From assembly GCA_016217925.1 (NCBI GenBank), contig JACRFK010000003.1, forward strand, positions 8,364 through 72,363: a stretch of DNA of 64,000 bases, given 5' to 3'. Source of the DNA: Candidatus Kaiserbacteria bacterium (lineage in GTDB: Bacteria > Patescibacteriota > Minisyncoccia > Phycocordibacterales > UBA2100). The position numbers and the translations under genes are program-made. Below, in pieces: positions 9,242 through 62,327 of the stretch. Below the pieces are notes generated by a model. The model saw nothing but the letters and a program-made list of their open reading frames with translations, ran no database searches and was not told where the DNA came from. Position 1 is the stretch's first letter. The number at the start of each line of letters is the position of its first letter.

Positions 9242-9410
9242 GTCTTTTCCAACATTTTGCCTTGGCCGGCACGTGCTCGTGCCGGCATGACACTCCTCGT
9301 ATCTGCCTTCGGCAGACACTCGGCCCCTCCGGGCGCCTCGCGGCGGTGTCAGGCCCCTCCGGCGCGGCTTATCCACAAGTGGAAGCCGCTCGGGAGGTTA
9401 TACTCACGGG

Positions 9411-29288: not shown

Positions 29289-30344
29289 ATGGATATCGAA
29301 CTCTTGAAGAAGACCGCGAAGCAAATGGTCGCTCCGGGGAAGGGCATCCTTGCTGCCGACGAAAGTTCGGGTACGTGCCAAAAACGGTTTGAATCGGTCG
29401 GTGTGCCCTGCACCGAAGAGAATCGCCGTGCGTACCGCGAAACTCTGCTCACCGCAGACGGGCTTGAACAGTACATAAGCGGCGTCATTCTCTACGATGA
29501 GACCATCAGACAGGAGACCAATGAGGGAGAGGCGTTCGCGGCGGTACTCGAAAAGAAGGGCATCCTTCCGGGCATCAAAGTGGACACCGGGGCAAAAGAA
29601 CTGGCTCTCCATCCTGGAGAAAAGGTGACCGAAGGCCTCGACGGGCTCCGCGAGCGGCTTGCCGAGTACAAAACTTTGGGCGCACGTTTCGCCAAATGGC
29701 GTGCCGTCATCACGATAGGCAAAGATTTGCCATCCCCCGCCTGTATCCATGCAAATGCGCACGCAATGGCCCGCTATGCCGCGCTATGCCAAGAGGCCGG
29801 CATCGTGCCCATGGTGGAACCGGAAATACTCATAGACGGCGACCACAACATCGAGCGCTGCTATGAAATATCGACCGCGACTCTGAAGAAGACGTTTGAA
29901 GAACTCGCCGGGCAGGATGTCGCCGTCGAAGGGGTCATCCTCAAAACGAGCATGGTCATCGCGGGGAAACAAGCGAAGTCCGCCGAAGGCGGATCCTCCT
30001 CCGGAGGACAGTCGGGCATGGAGGAAGTCGCGAAGGAAACAATCCGCGCTTTCAAGGAAACGCTGCCCGCGGGGCTCACTGGCGTCGCGTTCCTTTCGGG
30101 CGGACAGACCGACGAGCAGGCGACGGAACACCTGAATGCGATGAATGCGACCGGCAAGCTTCCGTGGCCGCTCTCGTTCTCGTACGGGCGTGCTCTGCAA
30201 AACCCCGTCCTCAAGATTTGGGCCGAAAGTCCGAATGCGAACATCGCGAAGGCACAGGCGGCGCTACTTTTCCGCTCAAAGATGAATTCGCTCGCGACGC
30301 AAGGCAGATACTCAAGCGAGATGGAAAAAGAGCGACCGTACTGA
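29289..30344 (+). CDS. fba: Fructose-bisphosphate aldolase, class I
   Basis: ...GKGILAADESSGT..., ...LEGVILKTSMV..., ...FLSGGQ... class-I Schiff-base aldolase blocks. Contains the in-frame palindromic mini-element (see repeat feature). Confidence 0.85.
   Translation: MDIELLKKTAKQMVAPGKGILAADESSGTCQKRFESVGVPCTEENRRAYRETLLTADGLEQYISGVILYDETIRQETNEGEAFAAVLEKKGILPGIKVDTGAKELALHPGEKVTEGLDGLRERLAEYKTLGARFAKWRAVITIGKDLPSPACIHANAHAMARYAALCQEAGIVPMVEPEILIDGDHNIERCYEISTATLKKTFEELAGQDVAVEGVILKTSMVIAGKQAKSAEGGSSSGGQSGMEEVAKETIRAFKETLPAGLTGVAFLSGGQTDEQATEHLNAMNATGKLPWPLSFSYGRALQNPVLKIWAESPNANIAKAQAALLFRSKMNSLATQGRYSSEMEKERPY
29978..30008. repeat. Second copy of the 31-bp mini-element, in-frame in fba (30/31 nt identical to the atpA copy)
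   Basis: GTCCGCCGAAGGCGGATCCTCCTCCGGAGGA; encodes SAEGGSSSGGQ. Confidence 0.55.
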
Positions 30345-41215: not shown

Positions 41216-41454
41216 TTTCCGAGCACAAAAAATGAACTCATCTGCTTCGTTACGGGGCCCCGTGCAATTCTCCGCCGTACTGCGTGTACGTCTCCGAATT
41301 TCACTTCCCCGTGCCTCGCATCTGAATTCATCTTTCGGCTCTTTTCCAAATTGGCAGCATCAGATTGCTGGAGAATTTCAATAACGTCATGCGCACACGA
41401 CGCTCTCAATTCTCCGGCAATCCGATGTTATCAAGGCCCCCCGTCGCTAAAGCT

Positions 41455-42381
41455 ATGGAGGGTAAACATCGAAGTGTTCTTTTACATGAAGCAATTGAAC
41501 AGTTGGCGATAGAACCAGACGATACGGTACTGGACGCGACACTCGGCGGTGCGGGTCACGCACTCGCGATTGCGCAAAAGCTCGACAAGGGGGGAACCCT
41601 TATCGGGATAGATGCAGATCACGATGCGGTAGTCCGCGCACAAGAAGCGCTCGCAGGTGTTGCGCCGAAAGTGCATCTCGTCGAGGGAAACTTCCGCAAT
41701 CTGAAAGCGGAGCTCGACAAACTCGGCGTCGCGTACATAACGAAAGCCCTCTTCGATTTAGGGTGGAGCTCATTTCAGCTCGACTCCGGAAGAGGATTCT
41801 CGTTGAAAGCAGATGAACCGCTTCTCATGACCTACTCCTCCTCCGAAGGAGGATCGGCCTCCGGCGGAAAGGACCCCGGCGCGCTTACGGCGGCGGCAAT
41901 CGTCAATGAGTGGTCCGAGGAATCGATCGCGGACGTCATCTTTGGGTGGGGCGAAGAGCGGTACTCGCGGCGTATTGCGAAGTGCATCGTGGAAAGACGC
42001 GAAAAGAAACCTTTCACGACCGCACGCGAGCTTGCAGAAGCCATCTACGAGGCGGTGCCTCCGAGATACCGCTTCGGCAAAATCCATCCCGCTACGCGCA
42101 CGTTCCAGGCACTGCGTATCGCGGTCAACGATGAGCTGGGGAGCCTATCGCAGGGACTCGCCGACGGATGGCAAGCGCTGTCGTGCGGCGGACGTATCGC
42201 GGTAATCACGTTCCACTCCATCGAAGACAGGCTCGTCAAACAAACGTTCAAGCAATGGGAGGAGGCGGGGGAGGGCAAACGCGTAACAAAAAAGCCCATC
42301 GTTGCCGGTGAGACAGAAACCTCCTCAAATCCAAGGTCCCGCAGCGCTAAATTGCGCGTCATCCAGAAAGTCCCGACGTAA
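41455..42381 (+). CDS. rsmH: 16S rRNA (cytosine1402-N4)-methyltransferase RsmH
   Basis: ...HRSVLLHEAIEQL...LDATLGGAGHA..., ...GGRIAVITFHSIEDRLVK... Contains an inverted copy of the in-frame mini-element. Confidence 0.85.
   Translation: MEGKHRSVLLHEAIEQLAIEPDDTVLDATLGGAGHALAIAQKLDKGGTLIGIDADHDAVVRAQEALAGVAPKVHLVEGNFRNLKAELDKLGVAYITKALFDLGWSSFQLDSGRGFSLKADEPLLMTYSSSEGGSASGGKDPGALTAAAIVNEWSEESIADVIFGWGEERYSRRIAKCIVERREKKPFTTARELAEAIYEAVPPRYRFGKIHPATRTFQALRIAVNDELGSLSQGLADGWQALSCGGRIAVITFHSIEDRLVKQTFKQWEEAGEGKRVTKKPIVAGETETSSNPRSRSAKLRVIQKVPT
41836..41869. repeat. Third copy of the mini-element, reverse-complement orientation, in-frame in rsmH
   Basis: TCCTCCTCCGAAGGAGGATCGGCCTCCGGCGGA matches the reverse complement of the atpA copy with 2 mismatches in the ~30-nt core; encodes SSSEGGSASGG. 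Confidence 0.5.
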
Positions 42382-47856: not shown

Positions 47857-47972
47857 GCCCTATAACAACCCTATCTGCTGCGTTGCGGAGCCTCTGCGAT
47901 TTCCTCACCGTACAAATGTACGTCTCGGAAATCACTTTCTCCGCGCCTTGCATCTCGGGCCGTTCTAGGGCT
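47857..47972 (+). ncRNA. Candidate structured RNA / palindromic intergenic element, copy A (downstream of ahcY)
   Basis: ~75% identical to copy B at 62177-62291, same orientation. Shared blocks CTGCGTTG(T)TGCGGAGCCTCTG, TCACCGTACAA(A/C)ATGTACG, CTTTCTCC(G/A)CGCCT(T/C)GCATCT(C/G)GGCC; internal stems change in a compensatory way. Confidence 0.4.
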
Positions 47973-47982
47973 TCATATAGGA

Positions 47983-50976: not shown

Positions 50977-52575
50977 ATGGATTCAGCAACCGTCGAGAAG
51001 ATAATCAAAGAGATAGGCAACATCGCACCTGCACACGAAGGTGAGCACGTAGGCCGGGTGGTCGCGGTCGGCGACGGCGTTGTCGCCATCGACGGACTTT
51101 CCAAGGCGGTGATGAGCGAAGTGCTCCTCTTCGAAGAGGGCAAAGGCAAGAAGCTGAAGGATACATTGTCCGCCGGAGGCGGATCCTCCTCCGGAGGAGA
51201 AACACAGGGGGAACTCTACGGCCTCATTTTGAACCTCGAAGAAGACGGCGTGCGCGCGACCATTCTTGGCGACACTGCCCGTGTGAGCGAAGGCATGACC
51301 GTCAAATCGACCGGAAGGATCCTCTCGGTGCCGGCAAGCGAAGAGCTGCTCGGCCGGGTAGTGAATGCCCTCGGCGAGCCGATAGACGGTAAAGGACCAT
51401 TCAAGAAAACGAAACTCATGCCGATAGAACGACAAGCGGCGGGTGTTATCGACCGCAAGTCGGTGTCGGTCCCACTTGCGACCGGTACCAAAGCAATTGA
51501 CGCGATGATTCCCATCGGTCGCGGCCAACGCGAGCTCATCATCGGCGACCGCGGCACGGGGAAGACCACTGTCGCCATTGACGCCATCATCAACCAAAAG
51601 TACGAACCGGAAGCGACCCGCCCCATCTGCATCTATGTCGCCATCGGCCAGAAGGAGAGTAAGACCGCACGCATCGCGCAGCAATTGCGCGAACAGGGTG
51701 CGATGGACTACACCATCATCGTCGACGCTCCCGCGTCCGCTCCCGCCGCGCTCCAGTACCTGTCGCCGTTTAGCGGCGTTGCCATCGGTGAATACTTCAT
51801 GGACAAAGGCCGCGACGTCCTCATTGTCTATGATGACCTCTCCAAGCAGGCTACCGCTTACCGTCAGCTCTCGCTCCTTCTGCGCCGTCCGCCGGGTCGC
51901 GAAGCGTATCCGGGCGACGTATTTTACTTACACTCGCGATTACTTGAACGCGCATGCCGCCTGAACGAGGAAAAGGGCGGCGGTTCTATCACAGCGCTCC
52001 CTATCATCGAGACGCAGGAAGGCGACGTCTCCGGATACATCCCGACCAACGTCATCTCCATCACCGACGGCCAGATGTTCCTCGTGGCTGACCTCTTCAA
52101 CAAAGGCATCAAGCCGGCCATCGACGTCGGCATCTCGGTCTCACGCGTCGGTTCCGCCGCGCAGACCAAGGCGATGAAAGGCGTCGCCGGCGGCATCAAG
52201 CTGGAGCTCGCGCAATTCCGCGAGCTTGAAGCATTCATGCAATTCGCTTCAGACCTCGACAAAGCCACTGCCGACCGCATCGAATCGGGCCGCCGCATGG
52301 TGGAGGTCTTGAAACAGAAAAACGGCGCTCCGATACCCCTCGAGCGTCAGGTCGCCGCGTTGTACGCCGCAGGACACGCGTTTTTTCTCGACGTACCGGT
52401 GAATAAAGTTACCGAAGTCGAGCGTCAGCTCATGGAATTTCTCGATGGTCAGTACTCGAAAACTCTTGCAGCTATCAAGAAGACGGGCCAACTTTCCGAG
52501 GACGCGAAGAAAGAGCTGAACAATGCGATGGAGGAGTTCAGGCTTGCGCATCCGGAGTTGTTTGCGACGAAATAA
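50977..52575 (+). CDS. atpA: ATP synthase F1 subunit alpha
   Basis: ...GDRGTGKT... P-loop, ...VYVAIGQK..., ...DDLSKQA... Carries a ~24-aa Gly/Ser-rich insertion in the N-terminal barrel, encoded by the palindromic mini-element. Confidence 0.9.
51168..51198. repeat. 31-bp double-palindrome mini-element (GTCCGCCGGAGGC-GGATCC-TCCTCCGGAGGA) in-frame in atpA
   Basis: Contains the hairpin CCGCC-GGA-GGCGG and the perfect 12-bp palindrome TCCTCCGGAGGA; encodes [11 protein letters not shown]. Confidence 0.55.
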
Positions 52576-61177: not shown

Positions 61178-62185
61178 TTGACATCCGCAGTCTGGCTTGT
61201 ACCATTTCACCATATGGATAAACCAAAGGTAACGCCCAAGGACTTCGTCCTCTGGGTAGGTGCGATGGCCTCGCTCTATGCGGGTGTCGTGGCTTTTATT
61301 ACGCTCGTGTTCGAGTACATTAATAAAGCATTTCCGAATCCAGTTACATCTTCTTACTACTACGGCGATCCGTATTCGAGCAACATCAGCTACGAGACAG
61401 CGGCGCTCATTGTGCTCACGCCGGTCTTCCTCATCCTCATGCGCTTCATCCGGCGCGATATCGCAGCCGACCCATCGCGCAATGATATCTGGGTCCGGCG
61501 CTGGGCGCTCTTCCTCACACTTTTCCTCGCGGGCGCAACCGTTGTCGTGGACCTCATCGTGCTACTCAACACGTACCTACAGGGTGAAGACCTCACCGTA
61601 GGTTTTTTGCTCAAGGTGCTGACCGTCCTTCTCGTCGCAGGCCTCGGCTTCATGCACTTCATCGCCGACCTGTGGGGGTATTGGGAACGTGAACAAGCGC
61701 GCGCACGGATGGTCAATTGGGGCGTCGGCCTGTTGGTCGTGGTCACCATTATCGCGGGATTCTTCATCGTTGGCACTCCGCAGCAGATACGCGCGCAAAA
61801 ACAAGATGCGATACGTGTGCAGGACCTGCAGAACGTCCAGTGGCAGATAGTCAATTACTGGCAACAGAAGGAAAAATTGCCTGCGACGCTTGCCGAACTC
61901 AACGACCCTATCGCCAATAACATCATCCCGGTCGACCCGCAGACCGATGAGGCGTACGAATACGCATCAACGGGCGCACGCTCGTTCAAGCTCTGTGCGA
62001 CGTTCGCGGGCGAGGGCGGTACCAACACTCTGCAAGGACGTTCTGTGCCAATACCCGCTGAGCCCACCTTGGTAACGGGCAAAGATGTTCAGGACAATTG
62101 GCAGCATGCTGCCGGAAAGGTCTGTTTCGACCGCACTATAGACCCACAACGATACCCCCCGTACTCCAAGCAAAAGTCCCTATAA
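61178..62185 (+). CDS. DUF5671-like membrane protein with C-terminal pseudopilin-like globular domain, hypothetical
   Basis: 4 TM, then ...DAIRVQDLQNVQWQIVNYWQQKEKLPATLAELNDP...PVDPQTDEAYEY... Alternative start at 61214 (MDKPK...). Confidence 0.55.
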   Translation: MTSAVWLVPFHHMDKPKVTPKDFVLWVGAMASLYAGVVAFITLVFEYINKAFPNPVTSSYYYGDPYSSNISYETAALIVLTPVFLILMRFIRRDIAADPSRNDIWVRRWALFLTLFLAGATVVVDLIVLLNTYLQGEDLTVGFLLKVLTVLLVAGLGFMHFIADLWGYWEREQARARMVNWGVGLLVVVTIIAGFFIVGTPQQIRAQKQDAIRVQDLQNVQWQIVNYWQQKEKLPATLAELNDPIANNIIPVDPQTDEAYEYASTGARSFKLCATFAGEGGTNTLQGRSVPIPAEPTLVTGKDVQDNWQHAAGKVCFDRTIDPQRYPPYSKQKSL

Positions 62186-62291
62186 AAGCCCAACTGCGTT
62201 GTTGCGGAGCCTCTGAGTCTCACTCACCGTACAACATGTACGCCTCGTGAGCCTCTTTCTCCACGCCTCGCATCTGGGCCCTTATAGTGGC
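62177..62291 (+). ncRNA. Candidate structured RNA / palindromic intergenic element, copy B (upstream of leuS)
   Basis: See copy A. The outer closing stem CCCTATAA...TTATAG(T)GG is shared; copy B has stem GTCTCAC/GTGAGCC where copy A has GATTTCC/GGAAATC. Confidence 0.4.
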
Positions 62292-62327
62292 TTTTTGATT
62301 CAATGTTCTGTATGTTAGGCTACTCCA

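Follow-up and report, generated by a model that had tools for sequence, protein, structure and literature searches.

What is the short palindromic stretch, encoding mainly serine and glycine, that interrupts the rsmH gene of a Candidatus Kaiserbacteria bacterium, and how did it come to be there? The gene lies in a window of 64,000 nt (the whole stretch of DNA that was analysed; contig JACRFK010000003.1), and an earlier note had claimed the stretch as a reverse-oriented, in-frame copy of an element in atpA. A sequence search located TCCTCCTCCGAAGGAGGATCGGCCTCCGGCGGA at positions 41836-41868 on the + strand of the window. Relative to the reverse complement of the atpA copy, it contains 3 mismatches in 33 nt and 2 substitutions in the 30-nt core, and the copy starts at a codon boundary, in agreement with the claim. 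Related 33-nt stretches are present at 29978-30010 and 51168-51200, and no match to the repeat was obtained in 100 dinucleotide-preserving shuffles. An element is indeed present at the place given as 41836; its length, however, is 30 nt (41839-41868) rather than 33 nt. We consider it probable that 41839-41868 is a copy of a miniature non-autonomous insertion element of Paceibacteria/Parcubacteria-type bacteria of the candidate phyla radiation (CPR). The element, designated E below, is a new family of ultra-short insertion element that, judging from the reading frames, would be translated. The gene and the three copies in the window are as follows.

41458 to 42381, + strand: rsmH, encoding the 16S rRNA m4C1402 methyltransferase (mechanical open reading frame [ORF] 41365-42381, probable start near 41458; PF01795; 100% identical to the Ca. 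Kaiserbacteria protein P0001).
41839 to 41868, - strand: E in rsmH; the + strand reads TCCTCC-GAA-GGAGGA TCGGCC-TCC-GGCGGA, with the canonical A-to-B order on the minus strand; covariance model 47.3 bits, E-value 1.6e-9.
29979 to 30008, + strand: E in the gene for class I fructose-bisphosphate aldolase (ORF 29289-30344), TCCGCC-GAA-GGCGGA TCCTCC-TCC-GGAGGA, peptide SAEGGSSSGG.
51169 to 51198, + strand: E in atpA (ORF 50977-52575), the consensus copy; covariance model 52.4 bits.

E consists of 30 nt, [TCCGCC-GRA-GGCGGA][TCCTCC-TYC-GGAGGA], with the consensus TCCGCCGRAGGCGGATCCTCCTYCGGAGGA, and folds into two abutting hairpins of 15 nt (6-bp stem and 3-nt loop in each). Across orientations, and with synonymous positions included, the three window copies agree at 27-28 of the 30 core positions. 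Because E and its reverse complement share one layout and differ only by a swap of the fourth stem pair in each hairpin, a repeat finder places the three copies both in a direct family (D6) and in an inverted pair (I1). All three start at a codon boundary, at offsets of 474 nt (rsmH), 690 nt (aldolase), and 192 nt (atpA) from the ORF start. The rsmH copy, in which one stem pair is broken (G to C), is read in phase 0 of rsmH as SSEGGSASGG, and the peptide spanning E, if translated, would be ...MTYSSSEGGSASGGKDPG.... E contains no stop codon in any frame on either strand, and LRRRIRLRR is among its six readings. Its centre, GGATCC, is a BamHI site, and the encoded peptide resembles an engineered glycine-serine (GS) linker.

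The rsmH product was aligned to PDB entries 1wg8, 1m6y, and 3tka, and extra residues were found at the E site. An empty site was identified in an rsmH orthologue (L106), which reads TAC TCA|AAA GAT (the bar marks the junction) where the window reads TAC TCC[30 nt]AAG GAC. This comparison identifies the first TCC (41836-41838) as a pre-existing Ser codon outside E, and there is no target duplication at this pair of empty and filled sites. In 120 close RsmH homologues, SSSEGG(S/L)AS(G/R)G was observed in five, a four-residue remnant in one, and ...MTYS|K(E/D)... in 114. The earlier note had held that an RsmH alignment free of indels, together with a failure to find further copies in the genome, would leave only coincidence; most orthologues lack the 10 residues. 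In another orthologue (L107), a 12-nt remnant, TCTTCCGGAGGA, is present at the site and looks like an internal slippage deletion of E. An AlphaFold2 model of RsmH based on an 84-sequence alignment had a mean predicted local distance difference test score (pLDDT) of 90.3, and the sole segment below 50 was residues 131-139, which fall within the E-encoded stretch S129-G138 plus a flanking residue. The E peptide is thus predicted to occupy the only disordered loop of the model. From the orthologue comparison, 41839-41868 is an exact 30-nt insertion into rsmH.

The other two genes were also compared with solved structures. Alignment of the aldolase with PDB 3mmt contains a gap of exactly 10 residues at E. 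When AtpA is aligned with solved F1 alpha subunits, the alignments are interrupted in the region from residue 55 to residue 80 of the query. The atpA copy of E sits in a larger extra segment of ~21 residues in the N-terminal domain (window 51133-51213, residues ~56-79), and since this segment has no counterpart in the solved F1 alpha subunits, more than the 30-nt E was added there.

The window was searched for further copies by a fuzzy scan, a generic double-hairpin scan, and the covariance model with filters off, and no further full E was found, giving a density of 3 copies per 64 kb. The generic double-hairpin scan returned the three E copies, part of an unrelated repeat, and nothing else. 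Rfam at the gathering threshold detected only tRNAs in the window. One weak candidate for a partial element was seen.

9302 to 9316, no strand assigned: possible half of an element, either lone or decayed, with the sequence TCTGCC-TTC-GGCAGA; intergenic (gap 9242-9410); a weak match of 21.4 bits and E-value 0.0024.

The orientation-aware search for more copies that the earlier note had proposed was carried out with a degenerate 29-nt pattern against GTDB species genomes. At least 105 further stretches were matched in 45 assemblies. The assemblies are labelled Kaiser-, Lipton-, Jorgensen-, and Nomurabacteria, Paceibacterota, Minisyncoccia, Parcubacteria, generic Patescibacteria, or "bacterium"; among the matches listed, the sole differently labelled one is a single Omnitrophica contig. 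That contig (L095, MHGP01000070.1), an 8-kb E-bearing sequence binned as Omnitrophica WOR_2, may be a mis-binned CPR contig or a rare case outside Patescibacteria. The flanks differ from copy to copy and are unrelated, and E lies mid-contig in assemblies of many independent projects. About one third of the copies are non-coding, and their sequence is the same as that of the coding copies. A looser scan of the same loci added ~20 more diverged copies. No E match was found in viral contigs. Across ~750 kb of E-bearing DNA, E always occurs as the double unit, and no isolated half-sites, longer arrays, or hairpin-ORF-hairpin arrangements were detected. The E sequence was not found in the literature searched, and the work there on CPR repeats, GIY-YIG, or tRNA contained no description of it. 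These comparisons show that E has been inserted precisely at many unrelated places and that orthologues with and without it exist.

Two local rearrangements involving E were noted. In L100 (1053-1154), a 72-nt tandem duplication spans E, giving two copies in one short ORF. In assembly CAZYWN01 (L004 at 4709, L029, L061 at 116, and L064), four near-identical palindromic units of ~150 bp carry E at the centre and have inverted ends of the CTAAATCCTAA type; the unit looks as if a MITE-like repeat (miniature inverted-repeat transposable element) had acquired E and then multiplied.

We also examined the target site. The first base of E is T in 98% of copies, and the three preceding bases are T-rich; the three bases after E are (A/C)-A-A, and 87% of copies have A at +2. 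Non-coding copies have the flanks TTT|MAA, with A at +2 in 94%, a stronger signal than in the overall set. Since non-coding copies share these flanks, they reflect a target preference and not a codon effect: the junctions that E occupies are T-rich|A-rich, TTN|NAA. A preference for hairpin loops in the target DNA was not supported, as the junction falls in such a loop at 53% of reconstructed empty sites and at 51% of motif-matched controls.

The reading phase was counted in the longest spanning ORF for the 73 copies lying well inside ORFs of at least 120 codons, the ORF assignment being mechanical. Phase 0, which encodes Ser/Gly/Ala, was found in 61 of the 73 (30 forward and 31 reverse). Over 354 kb of long ORFs, the target motif falls in the three codon phases at 39/31/30%. 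Target preference alone was thus rejected as the source of the phase bias, given the 39% expected in phase 0 (p=6e-15), and an excess beyond target availability requires selection on the encoded peptide after insertion. An intron, or a bypassed or spliced insert, for which phase would be irrelevant, does not fit this strong bias, which argues that the insert is translated. The expectation that only Gly/Ser phases occur inside genes therefore proved right as to their dominance, equally in both orientations, and wrong as to exclusivity. Among the 12 exceptions, five belong to the 5' leader of the gene that follows, whose product, judged by its N-terminus, is L13, L14, a pilin, or one other protein, and at least four are true coding insertions, in LeuRS, LigA, MnmA (PPEEDPPPA-type), and RNase HII (RRRRILLRR). 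In LeuRS of two genomes, E occupies the same loop in a different phase and orientation, and single genes with two copies were also seen; these cases argue for repeated independent insertion. The earlier note had further described a selfish element filtered for coding neutrality. The phase bias supports a filter on the peptide; the selfishness we infer only, and E may have a function beside the GIY-YIG nuclease gene described below, where its place is conserved and its stems are compensated.

Free variation in canonical copies is confined to the two loop centres; a single stem position differs in ~6% of them. Diverged copies contain paired stem changes such as TCCACC/GGTGGA, CCCTCC/GGAGGG, and CCCGCC/GGCGGG. 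Over 29 distinct sequences, pairing in the two-hairpin fold reached 95%, and 7 of the 12 pairs were changed on both sides; none of 500 shuffles matched this, and slid controls were 29-55% paired. By contrast, pair counts for a single long (15-bp) hairpin over the whole of E were no better than those of shuffles, and this fold was rejected. The stems are thus preserved through compensatory substitutions in diverged copies. The RNA folding energy of single copies with their flanks was not distinctive (z -0.8 to -2.1). The GRA loop closed by C-G is the stable GNA triloop of DNA, which points to DNA hairpins, although the function may lie in the DNA or in the RNA.

Several copies of E lie within truncated tRNA copies and split them precisely between nucleotides 35 and 36 of the anticodon, at the junctions CTTT|CAC and TTTT|CAA (Glu), CTTT|GAA (Gln), and CTTG|AAA (Ser). 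A short way downstream of the truncated copy there is an intact tRNA for the same amino acid. In the Glu cases, E is followed by an ORF of ~80-96 amino acids with the domain PF01541, whose last codons run into the intact tRNA. This nuclease is similar to 1ywl and 1zg2, both UPF0213 structures, and faintly so to SLX1; NCBIfam returned no family name for it. Of the eight GIY-YIG ORFs in loci selected for E, five abut E. Nuclease loci were also sampled with E disregarded, eight by exact protein identity and 80 metagenome loci by protein alignment. Seven of the eight have the arrangement [tRNA nt 1-35]-[E or a stem-compensated variant, in either orientation]-[nt 36 to ~40]-~10 nt-ATG. In 68 of the 80 metagenome loci, the end of the ORF meets a tRNA gene (Glu 51, Ser 14, Tyr 2, Cys 1). 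Upstream DNA was sufficient in 77 loci, and 41 of these have a double hairpin of strict E type whose end lies 9-61 nt ahead of the ORF. Most of the other loci have, at the two corresponding positions of the pseudo-tRNA, hairpins that differ in sequence or length, e.g. TCCCGC-AAA-GCGGGA CCACGC-TCC-GCGTGG. E therefore adjoins a PF01541/UPF0213-type nuclease gene far above chance (7/8 and 41/77 loci), at a density of ~1 per 3 kb in nuclease loci versus 1 per 21 kb in the window. GGAGGA is located 9-14 nt before the GIY-YIG start codon, and likewise upstream of rplM- and rplN-like genes.

Several features of this module were observed besides. Its conserved order is a truncated tRNA (nt 1 to ~40) broken by GC-rich mini-hairpins, then the ORF of ~80-96 amino acids, then the intact tRNA (loci L102 at 393-806; L074, L104, L027, and L094; L109-L115; L116-L195). 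The pseudo-tRNAs gather several hairpin inserts: L115 (614-686) has a second full E after the D-arm, and L111 (~600-690) has a lone 15-nt hairpin in the D-loop. In L153 (~1110-1190), an insertion of ~34 nt is nested in the loop of the second hairpin of E. In L114 (~1030-1100), E followed by the tRNA 3' half (nt 36-76) lies downstream of an intact tRNA-Glu, mirroring the usual 5'-half layout. The nuclease gene calls P0128, P0141, and P0153 start upstream, in the pseudo-tRNA and E, which gives false N-terminal extensions such as ...GGSASGGH....

How E might move can be outlined as follows. Insertion would be blind to reading phase, and most copies whose reading gives a Pro/Glu-rich or Arg-rich peptide would then be lost to purifying selection. 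The mobilising machinery would recognise the hairpins, which are probably extruded as DNA. By analogy, the small UPF0213/SLX1-like GIY-YIG nuclease is put forward as the mobiliser, a hypothesis that we hold tentatively and that may well prove wrong. Structure-specific cuts at the bases of extruded hairpins could account for the exact 30-bp boundaries, the missing duplication, and the apparent precise losses. The flank consensus of solo copies, TTT|MAA(G), mirrors the anticodon loop of tRNA-Glu. E and the UPF0213-type GIY-YIG nuclease might thus form an unrecognised mobile system comparable to repetitive extragenic palindromes (REPs) and their REP-associated tyrosine transposases (RAYTs), in which the master double hairpin would reside in the pseudo-tRNA/tRNA module and the enzyme would excise E and re-insert it at TTN|NAA sites genome-wide. 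We regard this extended reading as possible but rather doubtful.

A number of points weigh against reading E as a mobile element, or against assigning its movement to the nuclease. The role of the nuclease as mover is a hypothesis only, and the 64-kb window contains no GIY-YIG gene. Within the nuclease module, E occurs in either orientation. E could simply have landed in a neutral pseudo-tRNA, where an anticodon loop such as CTTT|CAC would be an ideal target, and could later have been co-opted there. The kept stems and the GGAGGA at Shine-Dalgarno distance suggest a local, possibly regulatory, role in the module instead of a purely selfish one. In rsmH, every carrier has the same orientation and the same GAA loop, so that one insertion followed by loss or recombination fits as well as recurrent insertion. 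The 112 canonical copies were retrieved by a near-exact pattern, and their uniformity is therefore no evidence of conservation or age. Finally, 7-nt direct repeats abut 16 of 110 copies (2.8 expected), within heptamer arrays; either E lands in such arrays or it provokes local duplications. The heptamer word is repeated two to four times, e.g. (GGAATTT)n or (AAAGTAG)n, also inside the conserved LeuRS gene; cases include L009 (LeuRS), L068 at 4835 (LeuRS), L014, L015, L046, L077, L090, and others.

Other origins of E were weighed. One account holds that E is a host-selected cis element, such as a hairpin that sequesters a ribosome-binding site or is processed, or a protein-binding site, with its home in the pseudo-tRNA/GIY-YIG/tRNA module, and that the gene copies are by-products, distributed mainly through homologous recombination among related genomes. 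The compensated stems, the wholly different stems at the same module position, and the placement of GGAGGA before the nuclease and the rplM- and rplN-like genes all agree with it, as does the finding that the rsmH carriers share orientation and loop variant though they are not monophyletic in a rough neighbour-joining tree. Most copies, however, lie in unrelated housekeeping genes without an apparent regulatory role and in both orientations equally, the strong phase filter shows that gene copies are tolerated rather than used, and new sites would still require an insertion mechanism. We think this account unlikely.

Alternatively, E may be a footprint, i.e. the joined ends left after excision of a larger element, such as a GIY-YIG cassette with a hairpin at each end. 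Such an origin would suit two half-sites set head to tail around the central GGATCC, the exact boundaries without target duplication, and the physical linkage to the nuclease gene. It is nevertheless improbable, because half-sites and hairpin-ORF-hairpin arrangements are absent from ~750 kb of E-bearing DNA, the modules have an intact E 5' of the gene only, and a 300-nt cassette would first have disrupted the essential atpA and rsmH. A further view denies the copies a common origin and takes them for Gly/Ser linkers that slippage or convergent selection produced independently, or for an artefact of assembly or of a synthetic linker. The GS-linker appearance and the BamHI site at the centre suggest it; it is effectively refuted, its probability being negligible, by the 27-28/30 identity at synonymous positions too, the non-coding copies of identical sequence, the mid-contig occurrence in many independent projects together with the absence from viral contigs, and the constant double unit that never forms longer arrays.

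We compared the preferred reading, a miniature insertion element, with known systems. Rickettsia palindromic elements are short palindromic repeats that lie in frame in protein genes, are translated, and are tolerated at non-critical positions; they are ~105-146 bp long and confined to Rickettsia (Ogata et al. 2000, listed in PMC3184786). E is like them in its in-frame insertion and tolerated peptide, and differs in being 30 bp long with two mini-hairpins, in its presumably unrelated sequence, in giving a similar peptide in both orientations, and in its CPR hosts. Rickettsia palindromic elements are not known to have a nuclease partner. Mitochondrial double-hairpin elements, GC clusters, and repetitive hairpin-forming elements are very short, GC-rich, and made of two hairpins, and transcripts retain them; they are dispersed over intergenic regions, rRNA genes, and occasionally protein genes, have identical copies across species, and move by an unknown mechanism (PMC10085805, PMC2800124). 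E shares with them two adjacent hairpins with conserved stems and variable loops. They differ in that they occur in fungal and sponge organelles, are mostly intergenic, have no described systematic phase filter or symmetric coding, and are presumably unrelated to E in sequence.

REPs and REPINs are GC-rich palindromes of 20-40 bp present in many copies, some inside genes, with a single-copy RAYT gene characteristically flanked by the repeat; most of them bear a GTAG or CGTC tag, have a Y1 (HUH) transposase as their partner, and lie largely outside genes (PMC3733652). E is similar to REP/RAYT as a short GC-rich palindrome associated with a nuclease gene, and different in that the linked gene is a GIY-YIG nuclease and E stands on its 5' side only. 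Neither the GTAG nor the CGTC tag was present in the E consensus or its flank profile. A phmmer search of 3417 ORFs from the ~750 kb of E-bearing DNA gave no match to a Y1 (IS200/IS605, RAYT) transposase, a weak test made with two approximate TnpA queries. MITEs are non-autonomous elements of 50-400 bp with terminal inverted repeats and target duplications, whose enzyme is supplied in trans (PMC3184786). E is unlike them in its 30 bp and in the absence of a duplication at the rsmH empty site. IS200/IS605 elements produce no target duplication and use terminal hairpins, and E resembles their hairpin-ended derivatives in both respects. DNA uptake sequences occur at ~1 per kb and arise by point mutation in place rather than by insertion, unlike E with its 3 copies per 64 kb and its insertions relative to orthologues. 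Lacking the tag and the duplication, and being 30 bp long, insertional in origin, and of low density, E fails the defining features of REPs, MITEs, and uptake sequences.

Free-standing homing-endonuclease genes of phages and fungal mitochondria take the place of part of a target gene, and the displaced part persists as a pseudogene. The nuclease module is similar, with a GIY-YIG ORF directly 5' of an intact tRNA and the displaced tRNA nt 1 to ~40 upstream. It differs in having a bare UPF0213 domain of 80-95 amino acids without the I-TevI-type DNA-binding extension, and the double hairpin at its junction has no counterpart. Overall, E resembles by analogy the Rickettsia palindromic elements in behaviour, the mitochondrial double-hairpin elements in form, and REP/RAYT in its link to a nuclease.

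The window contains a second, unrelated repeat of ~110 nt at 41232-41345, 47865-47975, and 62184-62295. All three copies are intergenic and on the + strand, and one lies between mraZ and rsmH. The repeat forms one long imperfect hairpin in which 15 of 42 pairs are changed on both sides among the three copies. At its end there is a terminator-like stem with a T run behind it, and Rfam gave no match.

As for the biology of these bacteria, E would be the shortest well-supported insertion element in bacteria. Both of its strands encode a harmless flexible linker, which would allow it to persist in essential genes (ATP synthase alpha, RsmH, aldolase, LeuRS, and DNA ligase) of very small genomes, and it offers a concrete source of lineage-specific loops in CPR proteins. 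E could be used as a marker of Paceibacteria-type genomes in metagenomes. Its GGAGGA resembles a ribosome-binding site and may mislead gene callers, so that some called proteins have false N-terminal extensions. The link of E to a UPF0213 GIY-YIG nuclease and to truncated tRNAs gives this widespread nuclease family, whose role is unknown, a function that can be tested, and suggests a possible new route of DNA mobility. If the nuclease is indeed the mobiliser, Ser/Gly loops would have been seeded over time into essential proteins throughout Paceibacteria.

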